Shown here piece after piece: positions 9,001 to 45,549 of a stretch of DNA of 64,000 bases. Under the pieces are notes generated by a model. It did not search any database, was not told where the DNA came from, and saw only the letters and a list, made by a program, of their open reading frames with translations. The DNA comes from Euglena gracilis (taxonomy: Eukaryota). Made by a program: the position numbers and the translations under genes. Numbering within the stretch: position 1 is the stretch's first letter; each line of letters starts with the position of its first letter. The DNA is taken from contig CP154954.1 in the NCBI GenBank assembly GCA_039621445.1, positions 36,255,703 through 36,319,702 of the forward strand, written 5' to 3'.

Positions 9001-12000
9001 ACCAACGGGTCCCCTGACTTTGGAGGCCTCCTGGAACACCCATTCGGTTACTCGGAGTAAGGCCCATTTTGGTCTATTTTTACATGGTAACCTGGGCTGA
9101 CCTGGTAAGTGTCCCCCGGAATGGTCGAATGCACCCATCTAAATGTGCTCATTTCTTGCAACCAATATTCCCGCTGCATGTTTATCTTACCGTTAAACCA
9201 CGACAATCATGAAACCAACGGTTCCCCTGACTTTGGAGGCCTCCTGGAACACCCATTCGGTTACTCAGAGTAAGGCACAGTTTGGTACATTTTTGTATGG
9301 TAACCTGGCCTGATAAATGGTAAATGTCCCCCGGAATGTTCGAATGCACCCATCTAAATGTGCTGATTTCTTGCAACCAACAATCCCGCTGCATGTGTTT
9401 CTTACCATTAAACCACCAATATCATGAAACCAACAGGTCCCCTGACATTTGAGGCCTCGTGGAACACCCATTCGGTTACTCGGAGTAGGGCCCAAATTGG
9501 TCCATTTTTACATGGTAACCTGGGCTGACCTGGTAAATGTCCCCCGGAATGGTCGAATGCACCCATCTAAATGTGCTCATTTCTTGCAACCAACATTCCC
9601 GCTGCATGTTTTTCTTACCATTAAACCACGACAATCATGAAACCAACAGTTCCCCTGACTTTGGAGGCCTCCTGGAACACCCATTCGGTTACCCGGAGTA
9701 AGGCCCAATTTGGTCCATTTTTACATGGTAACCTGGGCTGACCTGGTAAGTGTCCCCCGGAATGGTCGAATGCACCCATCTAAATGTGCTCATTCCTGGC
9801 AACCAACATTCCCGATGCATGTTTTTCTTACCAGTTATCCACGCCAATCATGAAACCAACGGGTCCCATGACTTTGGAGGCCTCCTGGAACACCCATTCG
9901 GTTACTCGGAGTAAGGCCCAGTTTGGTCCATTTTACATGGTAACCTGGGCTGACCTGGTAAATGTCCCAAGGAATGGTCGAATGCACCCATCTAAATGTG
10001 CTGATTTCTTGCAAACAACATTCCCGCTGCATGTTTTTCTTCCCATTAAACCACGACAATCATGAAACCAACGGGTCCCCTGACTTTGGAGGCCTCCTGG
10101 GTCACCCATTCGGCTACTCGGAGTAAGGCCCAATTGGGTCCATTTTTACATGGTAACCTGGGATGACCTGGTAAGTGTGCCCCCGGAATGGTCGAATGCA
10201 GCCATCTAAATGGGCTCATTCCTTGCAACCAACATTCCCGCTGCATGTTTTTCTTATCATTAAACCACGACAATCATGAAACCAACGGGTCGCCTGACTT
10301 TGGAGGCCTCCTGGAACACCCATTCGGTTACTTGGAGTAAGGCACAATTTGATCCATTTTTACATGGTAACAAGGGCTGACCTGGTAAGTGTCCCCCGGA
10401 ATGGTCGAATGCAGCCATCTAAATGTGCTCATTTCTTGCAACCAACATTCCCGCTGCATGTTTTTCTTACCATTAAACCACGACAATCATGAACCCAACG
10501 GGTCCCCTGACTTTGGAGGCCTCCTGGAACCCCCCATTCGGTTACTCGGAGTAAGGCCCAATTCGGTCCATTTTTACATGGTAAACTGGGCTGGCCTGGT
10601 AAATGTCTGCCGGAATGGTCGAATGCACCCATCTAAATGTGCTCACTTCTTGCAACCAAGATTCCCGCGGCATGTTTTTCTTAACATTAAACCACGACAA
10701 TCATGAAACCAACGGGTCCCCTGACTTTGGAGGCCTCCTGGAACACCCATTCGGTTACTCGGAGTATGGCCGAATTTGGTCCATTTTTACATGGTAACCT
10801 GGGCTGACCTGGTAAATGTCCCCCGCAACGGTCGAATGCACCCATCTAAATATGCTCATTTATTGCAACCAACTTTCCCGCTGCATGTTTTTCTTACCAT
10901 TAAACCACGATAATAATGAAACCAACGGGTCCCCTGACTTTGGAGGCCTCCTGGAACACCCATTGGATTACTCGCAGTAAGGCCCAATTTGGTCCATTTT
11001 TACATAGTAACCTGGGCTGACCTGGTAAATGTCCCCCGGAATGGTCGAATGCACCCATCTAAATGTGCTCATTTCTTGCAACCAACATTCCCGCTGCATG
11101 TTTTTCTTACCATTAAACCACGACAATCATGAAACCAACGGGTCCCCTGACTTTGGAGGCCTCCTGGAACACCCATTCGTTACTCGGAGTAAGGCACAAT
11201 TTCGTCCATTTTTACATGGTAACCTGGGCTGACCTGGTAAATGTCCCCGGAATGGTCGAATGCACCCATTAAATGTGCTTATTTTTTGCAATCAACATTC
11301 CCGCTGCATTTTTTCTTACCATTAAACGACGACAATCATGAACCCAACGGGTCCCCTGACTTTGGAGGCCTCCTGGAACACCCATTCGGCTACTCGGAGT
11401 AAGGCCCAGTTAGGTCTACTTTTACATGGTAACCTGGGCTGACCTGGTAAGTGTCCCCCGGAATGGTCGAATGCACCCATCTAAATGTGCTCATTTCTTG
11501 CAACCAACATTCCCGCTGCATGTTTTTCTTACCATTAAACTACGACAATCATGAACCCAACGGGTCCCCTGACTTTGGAGGCCTCCTGGAACACCAATTC
11601 GGTTACTCGGAGTAATGCCTAATTTGGTCCATTTTTAGATGGTAACATGGGCTGAACTGGTAAATTTACCCCGGAATGGTCGAAAGCACCCATCTAAATG
11701 TGCTCATTTCTTGCAACCAACATTCCCGCCGCATGTTTTTCTTACCACTAAACCACGACAATCATTGAACCAACGGGTCCCCTGACTTTGGAGGCCTCCT
11801 GGAACACCCATTCGGTTACTCGGAGTAAGGCCCAATTTGGTCAATTTTACATGGTAACCTGGGCTGACCTGGTAAATGTCCCCGGAATGGTCGAATGCAC
11901 CCACTAAATTTGCTGATTTCTTGCAACCAACATTCCCGCTGCATGTGATTCTTACCATTAAACCACGACAATCATGGAACCAACGGGTCCCCTGACTTTG

Positions 12001-13372
12001 GAGGCCTCCTGGAACACCCATTTTGTTACTCGGAGTAAGGCCCAATTCGGTCCATTTTTACATGGTAACCTGGGCTGGCCTGGTAAATGTCCCCCGGAAT
12101 GGTCGAATGCACCCATCTAAATGTGCTCATTCCTTGCAACCAACATTCCCGCTGCATGTTTTTCTTGCCATTAAACCACGACAATCATGGAACCAACGGG
12201 TCCCCTGACTTTGGAGGCCTCCTGGAACACCCATTCGGTTACTCGGAGTAATGTCCAATTTGGTCCATTTTTACATGGTAACCTGGGCTGAACTGGTAAA
12301 TGTACCCCAGAATGGTCGAATGCACCCATCTAAATGTGCTCATTTCTTGCAACCAACATTCCCGCTGCATGTTTTTCTTCCCATTAAACCACGACAGTCA
12401 TGGAACCAACGGGTTCCCTGACTTTGGAGGCCTCCTGGAACACCCATTCGGCTACTCGGAGTAAGGCCCAGTTGGGTCCATTTTTACATGGTAACCTGGG
12501 CTGACCTGGTAAATGTCCCCCGGAATGGTCGAATGCACTCATCTAAATGTGCTCTTTCCTTGCAACCAACATTCCCGCTGCATGTTTTTCTTACCATTAA
12601 ACCACGAAAGTCATGAAACCAACGGGTCCCCGAACTTTGGAGGCCTCCTGGAACACCCATTCGGTTACTCGGAGTAAGGCACGATTTGGTCCATTTTTTC
12701 ATGGTAACCTGGGCTGACCTGGTAAATGTCCCCCGGAATGGTCGAATGCACCCATCTAAATGTGCTCATTTCTTGCAACCAACATTCCCGCTGCATGTTT
12801 TTCTTACCATTAAACCACGACAATCACGAAACCAACGGGTCCCCTGACTTTGGAGGCCTCCTGGAACACCCATTCGGTTACTCGGAGTAAGGCCCAATTT
12901 GGTCCATTTTTACGTGGTAACCTGGGCTGACCTGGTAAATGTCCCCCGGAATGGTCGAATGCACCCATCTAAATGTGCTCATTTCTTGCAACCAAAATTC
13001 CCAATGCATGTTTTTCTTCCCATTAAAACACGACAATCATGAAACCAACGGGTCCCCTGACTTTGGAGGCCTCCTGGAACACCCATTCGGTTACTCGGAG
13101 TATGGCCGAATTTGGTCCATTTTTACCTGGTAACCTGGACTGACCTGGTAAATGTCCCCCAGAATGGTCAAATGCGCCCATCTAAATATGCTCATTTCTT
13201 GCAACCAACATTCCCGCTGCATGTGTTTCTTACCATTAAACCACGAAAGTCATGAAACCAACGGGTCCCCGGACTTTGGAGGCTTCCTGGAACACCCATC
13301 CGGTTCGGTTACTCGGAGAAAGGCACAATTTGGTCCATTTTTACATGGTAACCTGGGCTGACCTGGTAAATG
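1..13372. repeat. 213-bp tandem satellite array, left arm (about 63 monomers)
   Basis: Period 213 (GCAACC at 1 and 214; ORF echoes at 591 and 804). Consensus GTAACCTGGGCTGACCTGGTAAATGTCCCCCGGAATGGTCGAATGCACCCATCTAAATGTGCTCATTTCTTGCAACCAACATTCCCGCTGCATG...GGAGGCCTCC...TTACTCGGAGTAAGGCCCAATTTGGTCCATTTTTACATG. All copies share one orientation, with scattered SNPs and small indels. Confidence 0.98.
13368..13372 (+). other. Target-site duplication AAATG (second copy 30153-30157)
   Basis: The satellite ...GACCTGGT-AAATG is interrupted and resumes as AAATG-TCCCCGG after the 3' LTR. The boundary is ambiguous by 1 nt at each end, so a 6-7 bp TSD (TAAATG/TAAATGT) is possible. Confidence 0.8.
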
Positions 13373-13783
13373 TGTGTACCAGGCACGATCCCAGCTCTGT
13401 GGGAAACCTGCAGAGTCTGGATCCGTCACAATCTGACGGGTGTGATGAACACAGCCTGACGATCGTGGCAGATCCTATGGGATTTATCGACACGTATCAC
13501 ATGTGCCTGCGTGATCTCTTTTCCTCACAGGTGGTATTCTATTCTTCACATTCTGATTGTTTTGAAGTAAGAGGATTAACCTCTGAAAAGACTGAACTCG
13601 ACTGTGAAGGAAAATCCTTCTACAGCGCCTTGCTTTGTGCTCTGCCTTAGCATAGGGGAATTGGGAAAAGGGCTTTTGTTACTCCAAGGATTTTTACTCA
13701 CCTAAGTAGGTGCGCACCAGGAGAAAGCGAAACAGGCTTTTCCGGGACGAAAGGGGTCAAAGGGAAGTCCTTGGACGTACACT
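13373..13783 (+). repeat. 5' LTR (411 bp)
   Basis: Colinear with 29742-30152 (offset 16369, no indels). 3 substitutions (13440, 13487, 13502). Terminal inverted repeat GTGTAC...GTACAC. Confidence 0.96.
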
Positions 13784-13809
13784 TGGTAGCAGATTTAGGC
13801 AACGATCCT
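13784..13809 (+). promoter_or_regulatory. Primer binding site, complementary to the 3' end of initiator tRNA-Met
   Basis: TGGTAGCAGA directly follows the LTR and is the reverse complement of ...UCUGCUACCA of eukaryotic tRNAi-Met. CGATCC at 13803 is in register with the GGAUCG T-arm. Confidence 0.85.
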
Positions 13810-14037
13810 ATACAGACGTTCCACACAGAGAAACTCTGTGGTTGACTGGTGGTGAGGATCGTACTGAGCCGTGAAACACGGTGAAAGTACTGTTCCTGGC
13901 CCCTAGCCAACCTTTAAGCAAGGATACAGGTCTCAGAAGGCTCTGTTCGGTAATCGCCGATACAACCTTTCTGGTCCCTGTTTCTCTGCTTATTTGTGTG
14001 AATTTTTGGGTTTTTGCCTTTTTACCCATCTCAAAAG

Positions 14038-15582
14038 ATGCAGAGCACAAGCCCCAACCCCAAATTTGATTATGACTTGTTGATGAGTTCATTGAGCAAT
14101 TGTGATGAAGATTGCGGGGATTGGAACGGTTTGAATGAAACAAGTTCCAATTCCCGACTCCCCAAGCAAGAAGAAGGCAATTTGACTCATTTGTCATTGT
14201 CAAAAGGCGAAACGCCTTCATTATTGCATGGGGGTAATGAACCCTCTTCATCATCATTGTCATTGATTGTGCGGGATGTAGGTGGCAAAATGCCTTCCTC
14301 CATCCCGATTCACCCATCATTGATGCGGCGAGGGGATGAACCCCTTGCACCCTCACACTTGGTTACTCATGTTACCCATGAACAAAGTGAGGGGTATTTG
14401 CCCTTTGCTCTGTTCACACCCAAACGATCCCCGGTGGAAGCACCGGTGGGCCTTCTGGAGTGCAACTCGGTGGAAACACCGTGTTTTTTCCAACCCCCCC
14501 CTCAATTACCACCTCCCACACCATTTCGCGCATTGCCGGGATTACCCGCGGAAGCGGCGGTTTTCCCTGCATTGCCATGGAACCCAGATATGCGTCTGGT
14601 GGTACCGGAAATCTCTGGTGCCGTTTCTATTGTGGAGGATTATGAGGAAGATTTGAGGGATAACCTCACCCCCGGTGATGTTTACCGAATTCTCGGTCAA
14701 CTCCCAGCGGATCACCCGCTTAGCAAGCAAATTTTGCATGTCCACCAATGCGTTGCGGAATGCGCAACCATGCTCAACAAAGTTTTGCAGTTCGATGAGG
14801 ACAATCAAAGGGTTGTCAACACCAAACTAGAATGTTGCTGGAATTATTTGCAGGAAATCGGCAAATATTGCCAACACAATTTTGAAAATGCGGGGAAAGA
14901 CCTTCAGCATTTTCGAGAAAGTGTTGACAGTATTTTGCGCATCCAACTTCCACAAAATTTCCAACAAATCAGCGAAATGCTGCATGAAGCGGAAACGCGG
15001 AATGATTCCAAGTTTCTGCATGTGCAGGATGGTATGAGCCATCTTTTTGCCCAATTGGAATCCTGTTCAACCATGTTACTGCAATTGCAGCAGCAGGTAC
15101 AAGCGCAAAATGCCACCCCCAAAATGCCGGAAATCGGTAACTTTGTCGCGGTTGAGCATTTTGCCGCACTTACCAGTTCTTTCCAAGAAGCCCAACAACG
15201 GATTTTGCATCTTGGCTCGGAAATCCAGCACTTGAAGCAATTTCAGGTGAAAGTGCAAGAAAATTTTGTTCCTCGTACGCAAATCCAGCTTTTGGAGGAA
15301 CGAATTTCACACTTGGAGCAAAAATCCTGCCATTGTGCCGCAAATCAGGATGGATTAACCACCTTGAACGCGAAAATCGCGGATTGCCCACAACGGTTGG
15401 ATTTTACGCAACAACAAATGCAAACGGACATTGGCGGTATTAATGCCACCGTTGTCGGTTTGCAGGAGCATGTTTCTGCACTTTCCAAGCGAATCCCCGA
15501 CATTAGTGGTATTCAAGCCGCTATTGGGGAATTACAAACCCGTTGCACATTGTTGTCCACCACAGTGACGGAAATCCGCTGA
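14038..15582 (+). CDS. ORF1a: Pro/Ser-rich N-terminus plus long predicted coiled-coil protein upstream of gag
   Basis: About 514 codons from ATG 14038, Q/E/L-rich heptad-like sequence. Ends at a TGA after which the same frame stays open. Confidence 0.7.
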   Translation: MQSTSPNPKFDYDLLMSSLSNCDEDCGDWNGLNETSSNSRLPKQEEGNLTHLSLSKGETPSLLHGGNEPSSSSLSLIVRDVGGKMPSSIPIHPSLMRRGDEPLAPSHLVTHVTHEQSEGYLPFALFTPKRSPVEAPVGLLECNSVETPCFFQPPPQLPPPTPFRALPGLPAEAAVFPALPWNPDMRLVVPEISGAVSIVEDYEEDLRDNLTPGDVYRILGQLPADHPLSKQILHVHQCVAECATMLNKVLQFDEDNQRVVNTKLECCWNYLQEIGKYCQHNFENAGKDLQHFRESVDSILRIQLPQNFQQISEMLHEAETRNDSKFLHVQDGMSHLFAQLESCSTMLLQLQQQVQAQNATPKMPEIGNFVAVEHFAALTSSFQEAQQRILHLGSEIQHLKQFQVKVQENFVPRTQIQLLEERISHLEQKSCHCAANQDGLTTLNAKIADCPQRLDFTQQQMQTDIGGINATVVGLQEHVSALSKRIPDISGIQAAIGELQTRCTLLSTTVTEIR

Positions 15583-16428
15583 CTACCCCCCATTTCGCGT
15601 GCTCGGATATCTGAGTCACCGGAATTTCGCTCATTTTATGACAAAGTGCTTGGTGACAACAAGGAAACCTTGCAAGCATTTTGTACAAGTTTGCTCCAAA
15701 TTAAGGAAATCGTGAATCGGAATGCCCGATCCATGCAAGATGAGGTTTCTCGGTTGGATGGACGAATTTCTGCGTTGTTGGAAAAGCCAACCGCGGAAAC
15801 TTCGCGCACCACCGTGGAAACCCCCACCAAGTCACTCCACCAATTGCAAACCGTCTCAAATGCGGTGAAAGCGCTTGCGGGTCAACTCCGGAATGTGGAG
15901 GAGTCCCAAGGAAATCTTGCCCAAGAATTACACTTGGTTTCTGAAAAGTTGCCACACTTGGAAGATTTTTCCCGTTACCGCAAACGCATTAGGCATTTGG
16001 AGAATGAGGTTGACCGTATTTGCGGCCAACTCCAGTTGGTGGAACATTTGGAAGAAACGGTGCATGACTTGTCCGCGAGTCTGGATAAAATGTCCCCTCC
16101 GATACCGGTTGTGCCACCACCTACCGCGGTAAGCGCTGCGGTTGGTATTCCAAATGTCCCGGAATCGCGTTCTCAAATTACCATTTCCGGAGTAGGAATC
16201 CCTACATCCACCGCGAATTTGGTACAACCACCAGCGAAAACGCGAATTGTACCACCTTTGCATTTGCCAACACCACAAACTCATTTTTCACAACACATTT
16301 CCGATGAGGAAAATGACCCCCCACTCGAAAATTCGAGTCTCCACCAAGAAATTCAACATTCCAACCTTGTACGAGGTATGAGCCAACACCCCACACCTGG
16401 TATTGGTCATGTGTCGCATTCGCGATGA
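15583..16428 (+). CDS. ORF1b: in-frame continuation of ORF1a (coiled coil, then Pro-rich linker)
   Basis: Same frame as ORF1a with no stop from 15583 to 16425. Overlaps the gag frame, which is open from 16382. Confidence 0.65.
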   Translation, partial: LPPISRARISESPEFRSFYDKVLGDNKETLQAFCTSLLQIKEIVNRNARSMQDEVSRLDGRISALLEKPTAETSRTTVETPTKSLHQLQTVSNAVKALAGQLRNVEESQGNLAQELHLVSEKLPHLEDFSRYRKRIRHLENEVDRICGQLQLVEHLEETVHDLSASLDKMSPPIPVVPPPTAVSAAVGIPNVPESRSQITISGVGIPTSTANLVQPPAKTRIVPPLHLPTPQTHFSQHISDEENDPPLENSSLHQEIQHSNLVRGMSQHPTPGIGHVSHSR

Positions 16429-18115
16429 TACCAATCACCAACGGGGTCTGGATTACCGAATTACCGATCGGGGTGCTCGGCGGGAAACCCGCCCCACCGG
16501 GAGAATTTCACCAAATTTTTCGCAATTCCCGCAGGAAAATCCTGCCAACCTTACACTTGGTGCGGGAAATCCTGCACGGGTTACACATGGAGCGGAAAAT
16601 CCGCGAAACGCGTTTGGTGTTAAGAATTACCCTGACCCAAACCCCTGGAATACCACCGAGGGTCAGCGGGTTACTCAGAGAGACTTCAAGGGCACCATCG
16701 CAATCGCGAACAAGGTGAAGCCCCAATGGGACGGGGATCCAACCACATGGAGACAATTTTTTCGGGACTGGGAGTACTATTGGGCACTAAAGGGACCCAC
16801 CCAAGACCCGAATCCCGAGGTAGTCAAGATGGAATTCATCGATTGCCTACCGAGGGAGGAGCGAGAACGCGCACGCAATTTGGTGATACGTAATGGCGTA
16901 TCATTCGATGACCTGGTTGAGCAATACGCTTCAACCAATTCAAGTTTGGTCACCAGGATTACCCTGGAGAAGAAGTGGCGACAAAGCGCGCCATCGGATC
17001 GCAAATGGAAATCCATTGACCTTTGGTATGCCAAATGGTTAGCACTTGCTTCCGAAGTTGATGAACTTAGCGAGAAGCAAATGCGCGAACAATTCGATGC
17101 GGTTTTGTTGCATTTCACACCATCCCTCGTGAAGGATATCCATCGCGAGGAGTTGGCAGGGCATGAGACGACTCTTGCCCAACGTTGGAATTATGTGTCA
17201 AAGCAACTCAAGCTCACACAAGTTTTGGGACAAATACAGTCCGCTTTCCAAACGCATCCCACCGCGGGAATCCCTGCGGGTGCGGTTAATGCGTTGCAAA
17301 AATCACCCATGTCACCAAGATCACCCACTACGGGATCGAAAACGCGGAATCAGCGTTCTTCGGACCAGGGCACGGATAAACTGTGCTTTTTATGCAACAA
17401 ATCTGGTCACATGTCTCGGGAATGCCCGAATCCCGATGCGCGAAAGCGTATTGGAAGCCCAAGGGGCTCGACCTCCTCACGGGGATCGGGTTCCTCGGCG
17501 TTTTCACGTCAATCGGGAGTTTCACGGTCTTCGGAGAACCGCTTTAGCGGTAGTAGGCCCAAGTCACCATCGCGTGCTGGTCGGGAAACCCGTCCTTCTC
17601 GCGGTCGGTCACCTGGACCCCCTGCCCGAAAACGGGATTTCAATCGCGATTCTTCACGATCTCGTTCGCGAAGTGGATCATCCTCTTCACGCGAGTCAAC
17701 GGGGAAGTCCCGATACACCGGTCATGGTCGACGGGAAACCCGTTCACCACGACGGTTTGACGGTCGAACGGAATACCGTTCCCCCCGTTATGCGGAATCC
17801 CGCCACAAATCCCGTTGTTCACTTTGCGGTTCCAAAGATCACCACGCATCCAAATGTCCCAGATCTCGTTCCCCCCGGCCCGGCTACGGAAATCGCGGTA
17901 AGCGCCGCGATGACCGTGGTTACTCCTCCAACCGGCAAAAGGTCGGTTTCAAGATATCTTGTTTGGAGGAGGACACCCCGGCTTCGGGCAGGGAGGGGGA
18001 TGAGACCTCGGACGGGGAATTTAATGAGGCCCGAATGGCGGTGCGCTCATTAAACTCTATCTATTCCACCAAAAAGTCCGTTGCCGGCTATGCGGCCGGT
18101 TCGGACTTGGAGTAG
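16403..18115 (+). CDS. gag: Gag: capsid-like region, two CCHC zinc knuckles, Arg/Ser-rich region
   Basis: PQWDGDPTTWRQFF capsid-like motif; CFLCNKSGHMSREC (17384) and CSLCGSKDHHASKC (17816) fit C-x2-C-x4-H-x4-C. Confidence 0.88.
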   Translation: MVMCRIRDDTNHQRGLDYRITDRGARRETRPTGRISPNFSQFPQENPANLTLGAGNPARVTHGAENPRNAFGVKNYPDPNPWNTTEGQRVTQRDFKGTIAIANKVKPQWDGDPTTWRQFFRDWEYYWALKGPTQDPNPEVVKMEFIDCLPREERERARNLVIRNGVSFDDLVEQYASTNSSLVTRITLEKKWRQSAPSDRKWKSIDLWYAKWLALASEVDELSEKQMREQFDAVLLHFTPSLVKDIHREELAGHETTLAQRWNYVSKQLKLTQVLGQIQSAFQTHPTAGIPAGAVNALQKSPMSPRSPTTGSKTRNQRSSDQGTDKLCFLCNKSGHMSRECPNPDARKRIGSPRGSTSSRGSGSSAFSRQSGVSRSSENRFSGSRPKSPSRAGRETRPSRGRSPGPPARKRDFNRDSSRSRSRSGSSSSRESTGKSRYTGHGRRETRSPRRFDGRTEYRSPRYAESRHKSRCSLCGSKDHHASKCPRSRSPRPGYGNRGKRRDDRGYSSNRQKVGFKISCLEEDTPASGREGDETSDGEFNEARMAVRSLNSIYSTKKSVAGYAAGSDLE

Positions 18116-18151
18116 GGGAGCCCGAGGTCCGAGGGCACGGACCTCTGGGCT
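18113..18151 (+). promoter_or_regulatory. Putative stop-codon readthrough signal (UAG-G plus 13-bp hairpin)
   Basis: gag TAG is in frame with the protease ORF. AGCCCGAGGTCCG-AGGGCA-CGGACCTC(T)GGGCT at 18119-18151. Confidence 0.7.
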
Positions 18152-19198
18152 GATGAACAGATGGAGGTAAGACCTGATCAACCTTACCCCCCCTGCCCAT
18201 CCGCCTTCACGGTCAGTACCCGGAATTATTTCGGGTCCCCTACCCCCCACTCCACATTTCCGCTCGGAATGCTGAGCAAAGTAGGAAAGGGTTCATGGGA
18301 GAGCTGGCATGCAAACGTATTTCCGCCAGACCCTTCACTTTGCGTACCACCAATGGAATTACTCGTCCAAGCGGAAATCCGCATCCAAAATTTCTCCACT
18401 AAAGTTAAAATTCTCATTGACACTGGTTGTCGCATTGCACTGCTCTTTCGGTTGGGGTTGATACCGACCCCGCTCTTGGTAAGCGCCAAGAAACCGATCA
18501 AAATTACAACCGCGGATAACACCCCCATGTGTGGTGGTGATTTGGGATGTGTGCTCGAGATACTCTTGCCCATCATTCCGAAGCATCACTCACAACCCCC
18601 ACAATTACAACATTTCACCAATATTTGGGGTTACGAGTCCGGAATTCACGGGTCTGACGTAATTTTGGGATACCCATTTTTACGCCAGTACCGATTGGTT
18701 GTGGATTGCCACTCCCACGGTTTGCGCACAGCACCCACCACTTCATTGACACCCAAACCACCATCACCGTTGTCATCCACTATGATGACCACCGCTTTGC
18801 CCACACCGTTACCCACAATGGCAACACCGTTACCCACCACACCAACAACCGTTTTCCACACCCGGGGTACGGAGAAAGCCTCCCCCCTGCCCAATGACAC
18901 ACCAACATGCGTTCCACATGAGGCAGGGCAAGCGAGTAGCGGTACCCCCGCCGTTTCACTGGGTTACAAGACGAAAGCCCAAAGGCCTGAAGTAATTACG
19001 GTGTCGAGTAGTCGCCCAGCTACACCACCACTCCGTTTCCACCAGTTGTGCCGCATCCAGGCACAACTGCACAAGACGTCCCTGATAATGCCATCGACAC
19101 CCACTTTCACGCACACCCGTCACACCATCACACTTCCTTCCAATGTGTGCACTGCAGGAGAATTTCCACCCAATCGGATTTCGATTGTGGATGTTTAG
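18116..19198 (+). CDS. Retropepsin aspartic protease plus Thr/Pro-rich linker
   Basis: ILIDTGC catalytic motif and ILGYPFL C-terminal motif. The true frame probably shifts near 19040. Confidence 0.9.
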   Translation, partial: GSPRSEGTDLWADEQMEVRPDQPYPPCPSAFTVSTRNYFGSPTPHSTFPLGMLSKVGKGSWESWHANVFPPDPSLCVPPMELLVQAEIRIQNFSTKVKILIDTGCRIALLFRLGLIPTPLLVSAKKPIKITTADNTPMCGGDLGCVLEILLPIIPKHHSQPPQLQHFTNIWGYESGIHGSDVILGYPFLRQYRLVVDCHSHGLRTAPTTSLTPKPPSPLSSTMMTTALPTPLPTMATPLPTTPTTVFHTRGTEKASPLPNDTPTCVPHEAGQASSGTPAVSLGYKTKAQRPEVITVSSSRPATPPLRFHQLCRIQAQLHKTSLIMPSTPTFTHTRHTITLPSNVCTAGEFPPNRISIVDV

Positions 19199-20247
19199 TT
19201 CAAAATCCGACACTAATCGCAATTCCGAAAACGGAATCCACCCCCCATGATACACTTGGTTGTAGCCCGCAATGCGCGGAGATACACCGAGTACTCCAAC
19301 AACGCGGATTAGCCTCGTTGTTCGGAAACGCGAAAAGCGCGATTCCTAATTACAATCGCGATCACACTTGGTACGGATTTGATGCGGAATGGGGAAACCC
19401 CCAACCTGTCCAAACTCCCTTGGGATTAACCCTTGTGGTAGTGGAAGACAGCCCGCATGTTTGTGGATCCATTCATTGTGTTTCTACCCTTCAACCCGAA
19501 AATCGGGTGCATGAATACGCGAAACGCGTATGGAATGCTTTCAATTTTGGTCAATATCGCATTTTGGAACGATGGTTTTCCAAAAGGTCGACACTGGCTG
19601 ATTCTTTTGATTTGGCATTGGAAATCGATGCCTTCTCATCCAATGCACATGCCCGTTTGCCACGTCATTGTTCACAACACTCCAACGCATTTGATAAATT
19701 TTGGGGTGATACGGTGTTATGGATGCACCCCCCTTCAAAACTTATCGAATGTGTAGTTGAGAAAATTCTGCGGGATGAAGCCCGTGGAGTTATTCTCATA
19801 CCCATCATTCCGGAAGCGGAATGGTTCCACCAACTATCGTATGTCTGTTTTCATTGGTGGAGTTTACCCACTAATGTACCGATTTTTGAGGATTTTTGTG
19901 GTAAAATATTACCACCCTTGCAAGAAATCATTTTTCGCGTATGTTTCTTCGATGCATTCGGAATGTCCGAATTTGCGGTGCCGAGGAAGCTCGGTAGCCC
20001 CAGGGATACCCTGGCGGTTTCCGCGGTCATCGAGAGTGCAGGTCAGCATCCTAAATCAGCCGAATTCTGTTCGCGGATCACCCGCGAATTTCACGGTGTG
20101 CTGGAAAATCGGGTATATGTGTGCGACGTCGACCCCGCGATACGCGGTCCGTTCGGTGTTTGTAAGATCGAGCTGAAGGAAGGAGCCAAAGCAATGCACC
20201 GGAAAATTTTTTCGTTGTTCGGGAGAACGCGAACAAGCTCTCAATGA
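19048..20247 (+). CDS. Pol segment with Cys/His cluster, N6-adenine DNA methyltransferase-like (Dam/DIRS-MT type) domain at about 19550-19960, and pre-RT region
   Basis: LEIDAFSS..N.RLPR.CS...NAF...W....LWMHPPSKLI..VVEKI......VILIP.....WF matches the motif I to motif IV (xPPx) pattern of DIRS/phage Dam-like MTases. The following CKIELKEGAK is a typical pre-RT sequence. Confidence 0.75.
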   Translation: MPHPGTTAQDVPDNAIDTHFHAHPSHHHTSFQCVHCRRISTQSDFDCGCLVQNPTLIAIPKTESTPHDTLGCSPQCAEIHRVLQQRGLASLFGNAKSAIPNYNRDHTWYGFDAEWGNPQPVQTPLGLTLVVVEDSPHVCGSIHCVSTLQPENRVHEYAKRVWNAFNFGQYRILERWFSKRSTLADSFDLALEIDAFSSNAHARLPRHCSQHSNAFDKFWGDTVLWMHPPSKLIECVVEKILRDEARGVILIPIIPEAEWFHQLSYVCFHWWSLPTNVPIFEDFCGKILPPLQEIIFRVCFFDAFGMSEFAVPRKLGSPRDTLAVSAVIESAGQHPKSAEFCSRITREFHGVLENRVYVCDVDPAIRGPFGVCKIELKEGAKAMHRKIFSLFGRTRTSSQ

Positions 20248-20269
20248 AATGTTTGAGAAGCTTATTTAG

Positions 20270-23215
20270 CGCAAGTGGACTGTACCCTTGAAAAGCGAGT
20301 GGACGTCCCAGGCATTTGTTGTTCCTAAACCCCCAGACCCCTCAGGTCAGAAGAAATGGAGGCTGGTGCTGGATTACCGGTACCTGAACTCCCAAACAAG
20401 GGATGATCCCTTCCCGCTCCCCCTGATCGAGGATTTGATCACCAAACAATCGGAAAACCGGTTGTGGTCAATTTTCGATCTGGAGGACGGTTTTCACCAA
20501 ATGCACTTACACCCTGACTCCCAACCATACACGGCATTCGTGACATCCAAGGGTGTGTACCAATGGACGGTACTCCCCATGGGTGTTAAGAATGGCCCAG
20601 CCATGTTTCAGCGCATGATACAATGGGTTCTACGCGATTTACCGTTTGCCATTGTGTACATTGATGATGTGCTGCTGGGAACACCACCACCATCCGCAAA
20701 ATCGAGCGAGGATATCCTCGTCACACACTTCCACCATGTTTGCGCGGTATTAACCGCTTTTCAAAAACATGTGCTTTTCGCGAAAGGCGCGAAAATGCAT
20801 TTGTTTCGGATACTTATAAAATTTTGTGGTCACATCCTCAGCAATGGACAGCGGAAAGCCGCTCCGAGTAAACTCGAAGCCATTAAGAAATGGACCCCTG
20901 AGGTAATCAAAACGATTACTCACCTCAAAGGATTTTTGGGATTAGCCCAATACTACGCGATTTATATGAAGGACTTCGCGAAAATCGCGGTGCCCCTCAC
21001 CAAACAGCTCAAAAACCGGGCTGTTGACAACACCAAAGTCATTTGGGATGACCAAATGCGCGAGGCCCTTGAGAAAATCAAGGCTTTGCTTTTGGAGAAT
21101 GTTGTCCTCGAAATCGCGGACCCGTACAAATCATACGTGTTGGAAGTCGACAGCAGCGATTACGCTGTTGGCGGAGTTCTTAGCCAGCATAACGCGGCGA
21201 ATGAGCTCCGACCTGTGGCTTTCTTCAGCAGAAAGTTACAGGGCGACGATGGAAAAGGTCAAGTCAAATGGAGTATACGCGAGAAGGAAACCTACGCAAT
21301 CGTGCTTATACTCCAGAAATTCCGAAGCTGGGTAGCCAGCAGTCTCGTCCAGATCCTCGTCAAGACCGACCATGAGAGTCTCCAACACTGGTACACCGAG
21401 GATTTGAACAAGGCCATGTCATCGGTCGGAAGGCGATGCAGATGGCATGAGTTCTTGAGTCAATTCAACCTTGTGGTTATCTATACCCCTGGTCACACAC
21501 AAAAAGTAGCGGATCCGCTCAGTCGGGCCCCTTGGTATTACCCTGGGAACCCGGATGAGGGAGACGCGACTTTTCATGGAAGTCAGGAAGCTGACGACTA
21601 CGCACGTCGAAACGACGCTGCGGATAATCTTTTGGATTCTTTTCCCGTTTCACAACTATTCCTGGTCGCACCAGTGCGAGGAAGGCGCCGACGTGGAAGC
21701 ACGTCCGGGCCCCGGCGTATTACGCGCACGGAGTCCCCTTCCCCACTGTTCTTTCGCGAATGGGATTATAGTCGTGACCCGGTGTATGACACCATTGTCA
21801 CCAGACTTCGTAATGGCGAAGTGCTGGACAATTACACTCTTTCACCTTTACGGTTGGTTTTTCGCAATGAATCGGGTTACAAATATTGTATCCCCCAGGA
21901 CCTGGTTGATGATGTGATTTTGTGTTATCACAACCATGGTCACCCTGGGGCCCCCAAACTTCTTTCGTTGGTGGGCCGCAGGTATTGCACAACCCTGAGC
22001 GAGAAAGAGCTTTACTCACGCTGTTTGCGAATAGCGCAACGGTGTCAAATTTGTCAAGCGGTAAAACCCCGCAGAGGTACCCCCCCTGGTACGATGGACT
22101 TTTTCCCCGTACCCCCTGACATTTTTACATCCCTCTGCATGGATTTTCTGGAATTAGAACCGTGCAAAGGAACAGACGACAAAATTTACGATTACGTTTT
22201 TGTTGTCGTCTGCAGGCTGAGTGGGTACATTGTAGCCATTCCATGCCAGAAGTCAGGGTTGACTGCCCAAAGTTTGGCAGCTATATTTTTGGAGAAATGC
22301 ATTTGCTTGATGGGTTTACCGAATGAAATCGTGAGTGATCAAGACCATTTGATTTCTTCAAGGTTTTTCACCACTTTGTGCGGTTTACTCGGAATCGAGC
22401 AACATTTTTCCATTATATACCGACCCAAAGGCAATGGTAGAGCCGAGGCAGCCGTGAAATCCGTCGTGAATATGCTTCGCCTTTCACTGGCTGACTCGCG
22501 CAGCAACTGGATATCAGTTCTACCATGGTCTTTGTTTTATATCAATACCCTACCAGGGTTGGTTTTACCTCACTCCCCCTATAAATTAGTTTTCGGACGG
22601 GACCCTCCGGCCATAGGGGATGTCCCTTCGGAGAGACCCGCCCGAACGAGTGTCAGTTGCGAGACCTGGTTTGCGGAAGTAGAAAATCTACGTTCTGCAG
22701 TCCAGAAGCGCGTGACTGATATTCATGCAGCAAAACGGAAATCGTTTTTGCAGAATTTCAAGTCACCTGTTTACAATCCCGGTGACCGCGTGTGGGTACG
22801 GAATAGCCGTACTCGCATGCAGTCTTCCAAGCTGGACCCCCTCTGGCTCGGCCCCTGTGAAATCCTAGAAAGACTAGGTACCAGCGGGCGTTACAAGGTT
22901 GCATTACCGAATGGTGTTGAGGACGTTCATATGGACGACTTCAAACCATACCTGTCGCCACCGGATGGGAAACCCATCCCGTGTTTGCACTTCAAACCCC
23001 GTTCCAGATTACCTGAGACGGACGACTTTGTAGTCGATAAAATTATCGATCACAAAATCGACAAAGGTATGCACCTTTGGAAGGTCCGCTGGAAAGGGTA
23101 TGGGCCCGAGGAGGACACTTGGGAGCCAGCAACCAGTTTTGTTGGGTATGTCCAGCAAGATTGGAAGCTTTGGAACAAGAAGCATAACATTGATGTTTCC
23201 ATGACAAACTTTTGA
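20270..23215 (+). CDS. pol: Pol: reverse transcriptase, RNase H, integrase, chromodomain
   Basis: WRLVLDYRYLN, DLEDGFHQ, LPMGVKNGP, YIDD (RT); VDSSDYAVGGVL, REKE, TDHESL, ADPLSR (RNase H); HNHGHPG..CQIC, MDF, SDQD, GNGRAE (HHCC/DDE integrase); WLGP GPY/F-like motif. Confidence 0.97.
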   Translation, partial: RKWTVPLKSEWTSQAFVVPKPPDPSGQKKWRLVLDYRYLNSQTRDDPFPLPLIEDLITKQSENRLWSIFDLEDGFHQMHLHPDSQPYTAFVTSKGVYQWTVLPMGVKNGPAMFQRMIQWVLRDLPFAIVYIDDVLLGTPPPSAKSSEDILVTHFHHVCAVLTAFQKHVLFAKGAKMHLFRILIKFCGHILSNGQRKAAPSKLEAIKKWTPEVIKTITHLKGFLGLAQYYAIYMKDFAKIAVPLTKQLKNRAVDNTKVIWDDQMREALEKIKALLLENVVLEIADPYKSYVLEVDSSDYAVGGVLSQHNAANELRPVAFFSRKLQGDDGKGQVKWSIREKETYAIVLILQKFRSWVASSLVQILVKTDHESLQHWYTEDLNKAMSSVGRRCRWHEFLSQFNLVVIYTPGHTQKVADPLSRAPWYYPGNPDEGDATFHGSQEADDYARRNDAADNLLDSFPVSQLFLVAPVRGRRRRGSTSGPRRITRTESPSPLFFREWDYSRDPVYDTIVTRLRNGEVLDNYTLSPLRLVFRNESGYKYCIPQDLVDDVILCYHNHGHPGAPKLLSLVGRRYCTTLSEKELYSRCLRIAQRCQICQAVKPRRGTPPGTMDFFPVPPDIFTSLCMDFLELEPCKGTDDKIYDYVFVVVCRLSGYIVAIPCQKSGLTAQSLAAIFLEKCICLMGLPNEIVSDQDHLISSRFFTTLCGLLGIEQHFSIIYRPKGNGRAEAAVKSVVNMLRLSLADSRSNWISVLPWSLFYINTLPGLVLPHSPYKLVFGRDPPAIGDVPSERPARTSVSCETWFAEVENLRSAVQKRVTDIHAAKRKSFLQNFKSPVYNPGDRVWVRNSRTRMQSSKLDPLWLGPCEILERLGTSGRYKVALPNGVEDVHMDDFKPYLSPPDGKPIPCLHFKPRSRLPETDDFVVDKIIDHKIDKGMHLWKVRWKGYGPEEDTWEPATSFVGYVQQDWKLWNKKHNIDVSMTNF
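23021..23190 (+). other. Chromodomain at the integrase C-terminus
   Basis: FVVDKIIDHK...WKVRWKGYGPEEDTWEP, with aromatic cage residues F, W and Y present. Confidence 0.93.
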
Positions 23216-23294
23216 GGATACATGGGAAATCCATGTTGTTTTCGTTTGTTGTTTCTATCATTGATTCTTATCATTCTTTCTTTCCGCAGAAATT

Positions 23295-25073
23295 TTGTTT
23301 GCCAACCAATACCCAAACCAGGGAGATACCCTTTCACTTGACAACAAACCACCCACACAATCTACCGTACCGACCCCGGGCGGTATTATGCTGCCCGGTG
23401 GAAGGGATTCAGGCGGAGGACCGCCTTACCACCCCACCACTCACCCTCAACCTGACCAGTATGCATACCGATACGGTACGCAGCCACCTGCACGGACTGC
23501 GGCTCAGGGAAACCCTGAAGCCAGCAGCAGTAGCAGGATGACCCAGATGCCCGCGGAAGCGCGGCCATCTCAGCCATCAGGCTCTCGTCGCCTCCCACCG
23601 TATGCGGGTGTGATGATCCACCGCACGGCGGAGACGATGAACCGGGTTATGCGTATGAGCGCAAACCCGGCACCAGACCAACTCACACAGGCATTGTGGG
23701 ATGACCACTGCCGTAAAGTTTTGACCATCGCGAATACCCCTCCAGCCCTGTGGTGTATGTGCGCCCAGGCGACGATGACCGGTCTGGTGTATTACACCGA
23801 CCCGGACGCGTCGGGATTCGCGGCAGACATTACCATGCGTGACCTGGGCGTGGAAGTCCCGCCACAGGTCGCAAGGCAGGTACCACCCGTTGGCACTTAC
23901 ACTGCACATTTTCGTGCTCACTCCCCCGGATTACCCGAGGAAGAGACAGTGGAAGCACCTGTCCGGAGTGAACACCCACGTGTGAAAGAAAGTATTTTTC
24001 GATCCCCTGAGCGCATGCCCCGGCGGGATTATCCTGCGCAGGAGCATGTGTCTCAGTACACCGTCTCTGGGGATTATCCCCAGGAGGCGCCAAGGCCACA
24101 GGATCAGTACATATATCCACCTCAACCCCACCCCACTATACCTGACCCTATCTCACGACGTCCTGCGGCGGGAAATCCTCCCCCGACGTCTGACTCTGCC
24201 CGAAGCGCTCGTCCGCGGGAAGCCGCGGCAGCGCCTCGTGCGACACCAGTTCCCCCGGCACGGGATGAACCCGTTAACCCGTGGACTGGTCGGCCGTTCG
24301 AGACTGAGGAGGACCGTCAACAGTATGAATATGCTGTGACGATCCAACGACAAATCGCACGTCGCCCCCCTGTTTCCGCTGGCCAGGGATACCCTGCCCG
24401 GGCGGAAATGACACGGGAAGAGCGCCAGCAGTATGATGCTGCTGTGTCGGCTCTCACAGGAGTCCCAGCTCCATCACGGTTAAGTCAACCAGCGCGACAG
24501 CGGGACGTGGCTGTGGCGGAAGCGCCACCAGCACGACCCACAAGCTCTGCCGCCGGCAAACGTGACCGCGGCCCGGAAAATCTGACGCCGCAGCCACAAC
24601 GCCGCTCGCCGAGGTCGGAAAACCCGCCCGCGGCGATGCACGTCGACGCTGAGGAGGAAGCTCCGCCAGCGCCCGACGTGACGGCAGAACGGGCACGTCG
24701 GGAAACCCGACCATCCCCAGTCGCACCGGTTTACTCGAATCGTGGTGATGCTGAGCAGGAATTTGCTCGAACACCAAGCACGGAATCCGTGACTTACCCT
24801 GTGTATACAGAAGAAGACCCAGAATACTGGGAATATTGGGACCCATATCGAGCGACGATAGAATGGCTGTCCAACACGAAGGGCAAGGGTAAAGGAAAAG
24901 GCAAGGGTAAGGGTAAAGGTAAAGGCCAGGAGAAAGGTGGGAAAGCCCCATCTGGGAAAGGCGAAAAAACCCGCTGGACCAGCTCCAGGCAAAGGCGGAA
25001 AATCTGCCGGACCCTCCACAGGAAAAGGCGGAAAAGCCGCCGAGCCTTCGAAAACGAAGGATTACGACGTTAA
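23295..25073 (+). CDS. Accessory ORF part A (Pro/Ala/Arg-rich, GK repeat), unknown function
   Basis: 592-codon sense ORF after pol; first ATG 23388; (GK)n at about 24879-24925. Confidence 0.65.
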   Translation: MFANQYPNQGDTLSLDNKPPTQSTVPTPGGIMLPGGRDSGGGPPYHPTTHPQPDQYAYRYGTQPPARTAAQGNPEASSSSRMTQMPAEARPSQPSGSRRLPPYAGVMIHRTAETMNRVMRMSANPAPDQLTQALWDDHCRKVLTIANTPPALWCMCAQATMTGLVYYTDPDASGFAADITMRDLGVEVPPQVARQVPPVGTYTAHFRAHSPGLPEEETVEAPVRSEHPRVKESIFRSPERMPRRDYPAQEHVSQYTVSGDYPQEAPRPQDQYIYPPQPHPTIPDPISRRPAAGNPPPTSDSARSARPREAAAAPRATPVPPARDEPVNPWTGRPFETEEDRQQYEYAVTIQRQIARRPPVSAGQGYPARAEMTREERQQYDAAVSALTGVPAPSRLSQPARQRDVAVAEAPPARPTSSAAGKRDRGPENLTPQPQRRSPRSENPPAAMHVDAEEEAPPAPDVTAERARRETRPSPVAPVYSNRGDAEQEFARTPSTESVTYPVYTEEDPEYWEYWDPYRATIEWLSNTKGKGKGKGKGKGKGKGQEKGGKAPSGKGEKTRWTSSRQRRKICRTLHRKRRKSRRAFENEGLRR

Positions 25074-26784
25074 CCAGGTGTTCGACTACCTGGATGAGAT
25101 CTGGCCGAAAATTGAAGAAAATCTTCAGCAGTACACACGTGCAGGTAACGTCATCCACCGACCACCGGAAGCGGTGCTCGAAGTGGTACAGGATCGTATG
25201 TACGATCACTGCAAGCGATTTTTCTACAGTTCTGAACTTCATGCATTTGAGGGATACCCTCATTCGAATGAAGTCGTCCTGGACCGGATGCCCGGTTTCT
25301 GGGAGCTGTGGTTCTGGTTGGGATACCCCTGCCAGAACTTCGGCATCTTTACTGACCGAAACGGTCAGTCGTACGTGAACTGTTTGGGAACATGTCCTGA
25401 CGATGAAACGTTCGTCGCACAGTTGAAGGAAATCTTCAACCACATGTATTCCGTCAGCGCACTGGGAATCCAGTGGAAGTATTACCCCCTGCCGGAGAAA
25501 CTCCAGGTGCAGGCTGCGGTAATGTTCACGAACAACCTCCAAGTATTCTTGGATAGCATGTATGGCATGCTGTTCAAGGTACTGGACGTGGACCTCGCCT
25601 ATCCTCAGCGATACAAGCTGGAATGCCAGTTTTGCAAAGAGCAACACATTGTTGATTTCTGGGGTTTCGGTGAGCGTGGAAAACCGCCTCCGACTGCCGA
25701 GAATGCCGGCAGCCCACTGACCAGGAGATTTCTCCTGCATCAGTGCCGAAAGCCCCAGATCGGAACGCAAGATCGAAAGGTGCTGAAACAGCACCGGCAG
25801 AAAATATTTCTGCTTCAACAATACTGGCACAGGGCGTGGATTACCTACGTCCTGGAGGTGTACATTTATTTCCTGGAGTACATGACCACTGATGTGAATA
25901 TTCACAGGAAGTGGTTACCTCGGGGATACACCGAGGAAGAAGCCAGACCGAATGACCAAGACCGACGCAGGATTAACCTGCGGCCGGACTGGTACGAGGC
26001 CGAAATCGGTCTTCCGAAGCACATGGAAAACCAGTTCGGGAATATCCTGATCTGGGAAGATTTCCAGTCCTTCTACGCAGCAGACGTGGAAAAACAGCCA
26101 CGTTATGCCTTGCCGCTGTCAGCCTTCCTGGAAGACACAGGAGAACGTGGCATGAGCTGGGATCGGCGAATGCAGTGGGAAGACCTCTGCCGTAACAATG
26201 AGGACGAGCCAGAGCCCTTACCCGGAAGCGGGGTAAGACCGTCATGGCCACCCCCATATCCCAACTCTGACAGGAGCGAAAGTATTAGCTTTTTCCGCCT
26301 GTCAGACGCACAGGGGTGCTACAGAACCGGGGAAGACCCGCGTTCTGCAGCACAGCTACACACAGAGGACTCACCTCCGGAAGCGGAGGAGACGGAAGAA
26401 GTGGTCCCAATGGCCGAGGATGAACCTCAGCCCGCGGAACCTCCGGCACGGGAAACCCGTAGCCCATCGGTTGTGATGCTGGACACTGTGGCGGAAACCG
26501 CCCAGCGCCCGGGATCACCGACAGGTGAAATGACGCCTGTCCCACTGTCACCATCCTCACCGGGTACGCCAGGAGGACCGACCCCTCCGCGGAAAAACCC
26601 GCCGGAGACGGTAACCCATACGCCTGAGGTTCTTGTCCCGAATTATTATTATTACGCCTCAAGCTTCCTGTCCCCGGGGAAATCCCGACGACAGAGGAGC
26701 CAGTGGAGGAGCCCACTTCAGGGGAAGGACCTGAACGGCGCCCCTCACTGGGCGGACGTGTACTCGGCGGTTTGCGATCACTGA
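24937..26784 (+). CDS. Accessory ORF part B (globular aromatic-rich domain with CQFC..H..HQC, then acidic/Pro tail)
   Basis: 615-codon frame that continues the GKGGK repeats of part A across the A6 run at 24964-24969. Confidence 0.7.
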   Translation: MGKPHLGKAKKPAGPAPGKGGKSAGPSTGKGGKAAEPSKTKDYDVNQVFDYLDEIWPKIEENLQQYTRAGNVIHRPPEAVLEVVQDRMYDHCKRFFYSSELHAFEGYPHSNEVVLDRMPGFWELWFWLGYPCQNFGIFTDRNGQSYVNCLGTCPDDETFVAQLKEIFNHMYSVSALGIQWKYYPLPEKLQVQAAVMFTNNLQVFLDSMYGMLFKVLDVDLAYPQRYKLECQFCKEQHIVDFWGFGERGKPPPTAENAGSPLTRRFLLHQCRKPQIGTQDRKVLKQHRQKIFLLQQYWHRAWITYVLEVYIYFLEYMTTDVNIHRKWLPRGYTEEEARPNDQDRRRINLRPDWYEAEIGLPKHMENQFGNILIWEDFQSFYAADVEKQPRYALPLSAFLEDTGERGMSWDRRMQWEDLCRNNEDEPEPLPGSGVRPSWPPPYPNSDRSESISFFRLSDAQGCYRTGEDPRSAAQLHTEDSPPEAEETEEVVPMAEDEPQPAEPPARETRSPSVVMLDTVAETAQRPGSPTGEMTPVPLSPSSPGTPGGPTPPRKNPPETVTHTPEVLVPNYYYYASSFLSPGKSRRQRSQWRSPLQGKDLNGAPHWADVYSAVCDH

Positions 26785-26878
26785 TCGCAGTTGTCACCCC
26801 ACGTGGCACTGCGGCCAGTTCTTCCACTGCTGTGACGGATACTGCCAGCCAACGGACGAAACAACTGAAGTTGCAGCC

Positions 26879-28852: not shown

Positions 28853-29661
28853 TGCCGAAAGGGCATTACCAAGCCCATGTAAGGTAAGCGCCTTCATGGA
28901 GCTCATACACTATATATATACACTGGAGGCGGAAATCGCGAAACAGCCCTGGGATGAACCTGGGTCTGTGTCCTTCAGCGCTCTGGATGGAAGCATCCAA
29001 GAGCCCCCCCCCCCATGCCAACCCATAATACCAGTGACCATGCGGACGGAAACCGTCTGCGGGAGGTAATCGCCTCTTATTGCGTCGTGAAGGAGCTACT
29101 GCTGTGAAGACCTTGGCAGCCGGGAAACCTGGCAAGCCGCTAAGTGACGCACAGCACACAGCGCGCACGCCGTAATAATAGGCCAACTTGTCACTTTTCG
29201 GCCCTAAGGCCCTTAAGGCTGCCAGACAGCAAAAATTCTGTTCCGGCCTAAGCCAACCCCCCTCTCCTCCCTACTTTCCGCCCACCCCCGCAAAGCTGTC
29301 GCCGGCAGTCGGTTTTGTAAGTAGGCTTTTGTTTCCTAGTGCGGATATGACCGCCTAGGAGCACTATCCGGGTATGACCAGGATAGGAGCCTGCCCCCCC
29401 CTTCCACACCTCTCCCCTCGGGTTTTCAGCGAATCGCTTGACCAACCCCGCGTGCCTTTGGCGCACCCAAAGTGGGTGGATGGGATACTTTGACAGGAAA
29501 CCTGCCAAGCCCCAATTTCCCACAGTGGGCTTTTTCGCACCCCTAAGCCGAAACGGCTAATAGGTAACCGCGATAAGCGGTAACCTTTTGCGCGTTTTCG
29601 GGTTTTTGGGTTGCGCCACTGTGGAGAAAAGAGATCCGTGTTCTGGAAAACAAAACCCGAT

Positions 29662-29732
29662 CAGGGCTGTGTCTGAAATCCTGACGGGACCTGGGATGAC
29701 CTGGTCCAAGAAGGAAATCGGGCATAGCCCTG
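29662..29732 (+). other. Long RNA hairpin immediately 5' of the PPT
   Basis: CAGGGCUGUGUCUGA pairs with UCGGGCAUAGCCCUG (15 bp, 3 G-U), followed by UCCU/AGGA and GGACC/GGUCC. Confidence 0.75.
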
Positions 29733-29741
29733 GGAGGGGGA
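29732..29741 (+). promoter_or_regulatory. Polypurine tract
   Basis: GGGAGGGGGA directly abuts the 3' LTR. Confidence 0.9.
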
Positions 29742-45489: not shown

Positions 45490-45502
45490 GGGGGGGGGGG
45501 GT

Positions 45503-45538
<36 letters not shown>

Positions 45539-45546: not shown

Positions 45547-45549
45547 AAA

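Follow-up and report, generated by a model that had tools for sequence, protein, structure and literature searches.

A Dam-like domain with a non-canonical catalytic motif in the Pol of a chromovirus-type LTR retrotransposon from Euglena gracilis

What keeps an adenine-methyltransferase-like domain inside the polyprotein of a retrotransposon when its catalytic motif is not the canonical one? The question is raised by a stretch of 64,000 nucleotides from Euglena gracilis (assembly GCA_039621445.1, contig CP154954.1, positions 36,255,703 to 36,319,702 of the forward strand), hereafter the window, in which a long terminal repeat (LTR) retrotransposon of 16,779 bp (13373-30151) is embedded in satellite DNA. 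From the letters alone, the original prediction had described a Gypsy-type element with a chromodomain and with a Dam-like domain between the protease and the reverse transcriptase (RT), whose catalytic motif, HPPS, departs from the (N/D)PP(Y/F) of adenine methylases, and had suggested that the element might mark its own complementary DNA (cDNA) or its target. The element and the domain are as described, the departure in the motif extends to other copies as HPPP, and the suggestion that the domain could be inactive or altered was a fair one. The pairing of Dam with Gypsy is real in this element and had already been described, under the name DAM-LTRs, in a preprint by Fernandez-Moreno et al. 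(bioRxiv 10.64898/2026.05.21.726589, 22 May 2026). We favour, with a probability of about 0.6, a reading in which the domain would be retained for a non-canonical, probably non-catalytic role and not for canonical writing of N6-methyladenine (6mA).

The motifs on which the domain was recognized lie on the forward strand in a single open reading frame (ORF), 19012-20247: IDAFSS (19624-19641), WMHPPS (19720-19737), VVEKI (19753), ILIP (19792) and EWFHQ (19819). Dam (PF05869) is the sole Pfam family matched by this ORF, with an E-value of 2.5e-4 (21.2 bits) for the complete ORF and of 5e-5 (23.5 bits) for the domain alone, both below the curated gathering cut-off of 28.1 bits. Since the domain of the window stays below the cut-off, the homology is carried by the Dam matches of its relatives. 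A phmmer scan of 1.84 billion representative proteins yielded 313 relatives (E ≤ 1e-3), of which 93 reach E ≤ 1e-10 and 12 reach E ≤ 1e-30, with 5e-61 as the best value; they have in common a core at about residues 175-320 of the ORF. In the alignment of relatives termed A1, 35 of 49 members match Pfam Dam at E ≤ 1e-3 (best 2.6e-12), and nine out of ten further, longer relatives exceed the Pfam cut-off. The AlphaFold2 model of the domain, built on alignment A1, has a predicted local distance difference test (pLDDT) of 90.9 and a predicted template-modelling score (pTM) of 0.85. When compared by Foldseek with viral models, the top matches are phage DNA N6-adenine methyltransferases (E 1.4e-9, query template-modelling score, TMq, 0.62-0.68), and among the solved structures of the PDB the top match is PCIF1 (E 1.2e-4). 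VIA-align gives Z scores of 10.5 for PCIF1, 8.6 for METTL5, about 8.5 for KsgA/DIMT1, 8.3 for T4 Dam, 8.1 for EcoDam and 7.9 for M.TaqI. Sequence searches of the PDB, either with the single protein or with a profile, gave no match, nor did a homologue search with the Dam ORF at near lengths; the protein atlas returned eukaryotic clusters, one of them with Dam on 11% of its members. Taken together, the Dam matches, the relatives and the structural matches establish that this stretch codes for a domain whose ancestry lies in the phage-type family of DNA N6-adenine methyltransferases and which in the predicted structure adopts the class I (Rossmann-type) methyltransferase fold.

The order of the domains along the element is protease, four-cysteine motif, Dam-like domain, RT, RNase H, integrase and chromodomain. 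By its position the domain lies inside pol, as had been predicted, although in the copy of the window its frame agrees neither with that of the protease nor with that of RT. Contigs of four public runs were aligned to positions 18116-21000 of the window for a comparison of other copies, in which shares of contig depth are not copy numbers. At both frame breaks (Table 1) most of the depth in the two DNA runs X1 and X13 differs in length from the window by one base, the size that restores the register of the neighbouring frames. The relatives are continuous: P0152 is a single protein of 1677 amino acids with RT, RNase H, integrase and chromodomain, and belongs to the same 90% cluster as P0003, in the alignment of which the protease block, the four-cysteine motif and the Dam-like domain precede RT. 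The Dam domain is likewise found upstream of RVT_1 in P0002, P0010, P0027 (by its phmmer position), P0052, P0057, P0062, P0081, P0090 and P0105. The one-base length differences in most of the depth and the continuous relatives show that the family encodes one continuous Pol containing the domain; in most copies and in related elements the domain shares one frame with protease and RT and so forms the portion of the Pol product immediately before RT. Programmed frameshifting was considered as the cause of the frame changes and rejected, since most other copies differ in length by one base at exactly these places and the relatives are continuous.

The copy in the window is a dead insertion: its frame is broken twice, a stop codon lies in the RT frame, and a conserved tryptophan has undergone a private change (residue 220 of the ORF is Cys in the window and Trp in 81% of the relatives, and essentially all other copies differ from the window there). 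Owing to the two frame breaks and the stop codon it is unable to make the protein. The family to which it belongs must be highly repeated in the organism of run X1, as about 20,000 contigs of that run align to the 2.9 kb of 18116-21000, and the Dam-like domain is covered in all 30 depth bins of the four runs. In two scans, metagenome contigs yielded no related DNA that tblastn confirmed. Run X17, a leaf-litter metatranscriptome library, contains contigs 90-100% alike over 18116-21000, one of which, of 706 bases, lies over the Dam domain; they hint at a host living in, or being part of, leaf litter, and are no proof of transcription, as DNA may occur in RNA libraries. Other arrangements exist among the relatives: P0130 has the order RT, RNase H, Dam, integrase in a Gypsy-type pol, and P0142 has integrase, Dam and a copia-type RT, which fits the description of the Chloro-Ochrophyta lineage in the preprint.

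In the adenine-N6 methylases that have been studied, the Asn or Asp of motif IV and the aromatic residue that ends it hold and stack the target adenine, and replacement of either strongly reduces activity. The element has His-Pro-Pro at this place, followed by Ser in the window. In the other copies the base at 19735 differs in 99.8% of the depth of X1, giving HPPP; among the differences listed, two further changes in the motif are synonymous and none affects the His codon. The closest relatives have HPPP (P0020, 68% identity over the core) and HPPQ (P0128, 63%). An HPP without an aromatic residue, present in other copies and in the nearest relatives, is therefore a family trait and not a private lesion of the window. 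The motif is covered by 118 of the 167 relative segments. At its first position 77 of these have Asn, 22 His, 13 Cys and 6 some other residue; the fourth residue is Phe in 66. A tree was built from the query and the 66 segments in which 110 or more residues are aligned, the remaining 101 being dropped. The clade of the query (12 rows) has Asn in eight, His in three and Tyr in one, and an aromatic fourth residue in only 3 of 12, this position being mostly Ile, Val or Leu, and Pro or Ser in the family of the element.

The conservation of the two catalytic positions can be set against that of the rest of the domain. Ranked by conservation over 145 columns in 18 rows of the clade, the Asn position comes 85th and the fourth residue 128th, whereas conservation reaches 90% or more in 34 other columns. 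In alignment A2, whose members are only 37-47% identical to the window, 20 columns are invariant. A motif-I-like D-x-F is kept as well (D 97%, F 96%), which is at most suggestive of S-adenosylmethionine (SAM) binding. Elsewhere in the tree a separate clade has a stable HPP(D/N) across ten rows and another keeps CPPF; the relatives in these clades include P0059, P0066, P0075, P0092, P0107, P0113 and P0129. The 41 of 118 segments without Asn represent more variation than the preprint conveys with Asn-Pro-Pro in almost all DAMs.

We favour a non-canonical role because the two catalytic positions belong to the least conserved ones, whereas many others in the domain are near-invariant. In the element family and its clade the domain is probably not a canonical adenine methylase. 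The fold would be under selection for a role other than standard methyl transfer, most likely as a cofactor- or nucleic-acid-binding module that, joined to RT, would act within the particle beside RT and its nucleic-acid substrates; a structural role with RT also falls within this reading and, with a smaller chance, so does an enzyme with altered chemistry. Several considerations speak against it. The Pro-Pro pair of the motif is itself conserved (87% and 92% in the 18 rows of the clade). Histidine can both donate and accept hydrogen bonds, so that activity would still be possible. The relatives are proteins predicted from assemblies of metagenomes and raw runs, among which there may be decayed copies that inflate the variability of the motif, and the base differences listed for the core domain, six non-synonymous and five synonymous, are too few and too selected a subset for selection to be deduced from them. 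Finally, in the three species analysed in the preprint 6mA is higher on DAM-LTR insertions than on other LTR elements, a result that favours activity at least in the canonical NPP families.

The most serious alternative, though an unlikely one, is a working N6-adenine DNA methyltransferase, active in spite of HPP(P/S), that would mark the cDNA or the RNA:DNA intermediate during reverse transcription, new insertions thereby entering 6mA-associated permissive chromatin of the host. This would agree with a fold and family that are those of adenine-N6 methylases, with the conserved D-x-F and Pro-Pro pair and with a location directly before RT, and the stability of HPP(D/N) in one clade indicates that His can persist at motif IV. 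It is difficult to reconcile with an element family that has neither of the canonical catalytic residues and with the poor conservation of both positions in the clade; in the enzymes studied such replacements cut activity strongly, and METTL14, with EPPL at motif IV, is inactive. The preprint bears on it in both directions: the 6mA enrichment on DAM-LTRs concerns Abeoforma, Sphaeroforma and Euglena, whereas the assays in E. coli of DAMs from DIRS, DAM-LTR and adintovirus sources gave no gain of 6mA, so that even canonical DAMs were negative in a heterologous host. Its model, in which the reverse-transcription intermediate becomes methylated, is the same idea as the marking of cDNA or target put forward in the original prediction.

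Were the domain, on the contrary, a neutral passenger, captured once and left to drift without function in the lineage, a degenerate catalytic motif and a decayed copy such as that of the window would be expected. The domain has nevertheless kept the same position in relatives of just 37-47% identity, together with the invariant and near-invariant columns counted above; it is covered in every depth bin of the four runs and an intact relative of 1677 amino acids exists, all of which makes passive drift improbable. An RNA methyltransferase acting as PCIF1 does, on cap-adjacent or internal adenosines of the element RNA and not on DNA, is suggested by PCIF1 being the best solved-structure match in both comparisons and by the giant-virus PCIF1-like proteins among the viral-model matches. 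Phage DNA adenine methylases, however, match at least four orders of magnitude better than those viral proteins, the sequence family matched is Dam, and the canonical catalytic residues are missing for this activity too; we regard it as very improbable. That the frame is unrelated to methyltransferases and resembles them by chance might be argued from a Pfam score below the cut-off and from the lack of a sequence match in the PDB, and is refuted by the 313 relatives (many of them over the Dam cut-off) and by a confident model with strong matches to phage methylase structures; its likelihood is negligible.

Beyond a retained, non-canonical domain in this family, it is conceivable, although we hold it to be doubtful, that the whole chromovirus-type DAM-LTR clade has turned the methylase into a pseudo-enzyme, the fold and a pocket for cofactor or nucleic acid being selected at the N-terminus of RT and methyl transfer being lost. 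In that case the domain would function as an adaptor or binding module, with SAM, DNA in methylated or hemimethylated form or a methylase of the host as examples of its partners; combined with the chromodomain it would constitute a reader-only chromatin toolkit that could aid settling in satellite heterochromatin.

The remaining features of the element are collected in Table 1. LTRs and a pol in which RT and RNase H precede an integrase with a C-terminal chromodomain make it a chromovirus-type Ty3/Gypsy LTR retrotransposon, and an unusually large one. The two LTRs are in direct orientation, with 407 of 410 positions identical (99.3%), and the same six bases occur on either flank; the primer-binding site presumably matches the 3′ end of the initiator tRNA-Met. 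In the 64 kb of the window there is neither a solo LTR nor a second copy of the element. None of its ORFs matches a Pfam recombinase, and no DNA methyltransferase (DNMT) domain is among their Pfam matches.

Table 1. Features of the retrotransposon and its insertion site, in positions of the window
Feature	Position	Strand	Basis and remarks
Target-site duplication, left	13367-13372	+	6 bases, identical to 30152-30157; satellite sequence read directly
5′ LTR, 410 bp	13373-13782	+	3/410 mismatches to the 3′ LTR (13440, 13487, 13502)
Primer-binding site	13784-13793	+	begins TGGTAGCAGA; sequence read
Extra upstream ORF, about 808 amino acids, coiled-coil type	14002-16428	+	in-frame stop at 15580-15582; Pfam coiled-coil matches weak, all below the cut-off
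gag with CCHC zinc knuckle	16382-18115	+	zf-CCHC, E 1.2e-6, 28.7 bits; terminal stop shares the frame of the protease ORF
Aspartic protease region of pol (frame 2)	18116-19198	+	LIDTGCR motif, position, alignable block in relatives
ORF carrying the Dam-like domain	19012-20247	+	open frame
Frame break 1, protease against Dam frame, one base	19038	+	64% of depth (X1, X13) one base different in length
Four-cysteine motif CxxC-x11-CxC, upstream of the Dam-like domain	19138-19194	+	alignment with relatives
Dam-like methyltransferase-fold domain, 171 amino acids as modelled	19489-20001	+	conserved core about 19537-19971
Motif IV position	19726-19737	+	HPPS in the window; canonical NPPF
Frame break 2, Dam against RT frame, one base	20203	+	one-base length difference in 59% (X1) and 61% (X13) of depth
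Stop codon in the RT frame, private or in a small minority of copies	20267-20269	+	X1: 180,449/180,943 of depth with another base at 20267
RT/RNase H/integrase/chromodomain ORF	20270-23215	+	Pfam
RT	about 20324-20836	+	RVT_1, 2.8e-24
RNase H	about 21044-21466	+	RT_RNaseH_2, 1e-23
Integrase, zinc domain and core	about 21890-22426	+	Integrase_H2C2, 2.4e-6; rve, 1.4e-9
Chromodomain	about 23027-23134	+	Chromo PF00385, E 5.2e-10, 39.5 bits (cut-off 25.1); residues 920-955 of the 981-residue ORF
Three overlapping long ORFs, 602, 640 and 705 amino acids, in three frames	23265-28852	+	no known family
Polypurine tract	29732-29741	+	sequence read
3′ LTR, 410 bp	29742-30151	+	LTR comparison and sequence read
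Target-site duplication, right	30152-30157	+	sequence read

An additional ORF upstream of gag is unusual among chromoviruses. The gag and protease ORFs share one frame and are divided by a single stop codon (18113-18115). As the relatives P0002, P0005 and P0008 start a few residues past the equivalent stop, it may be a feature of the family, and may reflect read-through or a separate start rather than damage. Pfam gave no match on the protease ORF. The four-cysteine motif, a possible small zinc-binding module, is kept in all six A2 relatives that cover the region, P0004 with a variant spacing. Between pol and the polypurine tract extend about 5.6 kb of long ORFs without a family: Pfam found no match in 23265-28852, a homologue search at near lengths found none for the 705-residue ORF, and the best protein-atlas score of the 640-residue ORF (0.78) is below the quotable level. 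The three may be a single large ORF split by frame shifts. A Lys-Gly repeat occurs in them near 25000, and a C-terminal part is rich in Cys.

Outside the element the window consists of a 213-bp satellite throughout, the only parts without it being 13374-30151 and 45490-45550. That second stretch, 61 bp within the right-hand array that do not match the satellite monomer, coincides with a slight rise of G+C in the 44-46 kb bin. To the left of the element (1-13372) the satellite is a plain 213-bp array with 92% matches; to the right (30152-64000) a period of 426 bp fits better (90% against 81% for 213), so that two types of monomer must alternate there, and the element is located at the junction of the two types of array. 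The observed/expected ratio of CpG is 0.92 in the element and about 0.6 in the satellite. The satellite location foreseen in the original prediction is thus borne out, along with the chromodomain Gypsy-type LTR element itself. A chromodomain fits such a location, and a single insertion cannot demonstrate targeting; heterochromatin targeting via the chromodomain is cited in the introduction of the preprint.

Taken as one locus the insertion is unremarkable, a dead copy belonging to an element class already known. Its interest lies in the family. Dam domains in LTR retrotransposons were recognized only in 2026, and the published heterologous assays were negative; to these the family contributes a lineage, present in many copies and bearing a chromodomain, most of which would escape a standard Pfam screen. 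A conserved domain with unconserved catalytic residues provides a natural test of what the domain is for: if the NPPF families write 6mA and the HPP(P/S) ones do not, and both keep the domain, the selected role would not be, or not only be, methyl transfer.

Among known systems, the phage enzymes of Pfam Dam share sequence family and fold with the domain; they are free-standing, with NPP and an aromatic residue, whereas the domain is part of a polyprotein and has HPP(P/S). METTL14, the partner of METTL3, is an instance of a methyltransferase fold selected for binding and scaffolding despite its degenerate motif IV. The analogy is functional only, since METTL14 belongs to the MT-A70 family, has an RNA substrate and is the product of a host gene, and we know of no partner enzyme for the domain of the element. 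PCIF1/CAPAM, the best solved-structure match of the model, differs in having NPPF, an RNA cap as substrate and extra helical and WW domains, its identity being 12-14%. DIRS elements use a tyrosine recombinase and carry the methyltransferase domain after RNase H, unlike the element studied here, which has an Asp-Asp-Glu (DDE) integrase (rve and the H2C2 zinc domain), LTRs, a target duplication and the domain before RT. A passage of PMC9940879 is consistent with this arrangement in DIRS. The Dam-derived domain family is nevertheless the same as in DIRS1-like and PAT-like elements, and the preprint derives the LTR-borne domains from DIRS.

The closest system is that of the DAM-LTRs, in particular the lineages with a chromodomain (the Chlorophyta chromovirus-like clade and the Euglena DAM-LTRs), and the preprint describing it was the only directly relevant work in the literature search; in the passages available, PMC9940879 and PMC12477816 mention DIRS methyltransferase domains and other transposon methylases and do not mention Gypsy-Dam. 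Fernandez-Moreno et al. count 10,030 eukaryotic DAM proteins, 53.9% of them linked to retrotransposons, claim the first identification of Dam domains in LTR elements other than DIRS, and distinguish five lineages of DAM-LTR: Chlorophyta chromovirus-like, Chloro-Ochrophyta, ichthyosporean, Pyropia and Euglena. Having a Dam domain in the Pol of a Ty3/Gypsy LTR element, the element of the window is a member of this class. It resembles the described members in that pol includes the Dam domain and the integrase is followed by a chromodomain, in a predicted fold that is compact and has helices flanking five to six strands, and in the proposed tie to the cDNA intermediate. It differs from them in its very large size, with orphan ORFs, and in having His-Pro-Pro with no aromatic residue next, in place of Asn-Pro-Pro. 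Only 2 of the 12 members of the A2 clade match Pfam Dam at E ≤ 1e-5, the limit applied in the preprint screen, and the clade has therefore probably been under-sampled and largely missed by it. The insertion in the window is a dead representative of a divergent family that is new to the DAM-LTR class.

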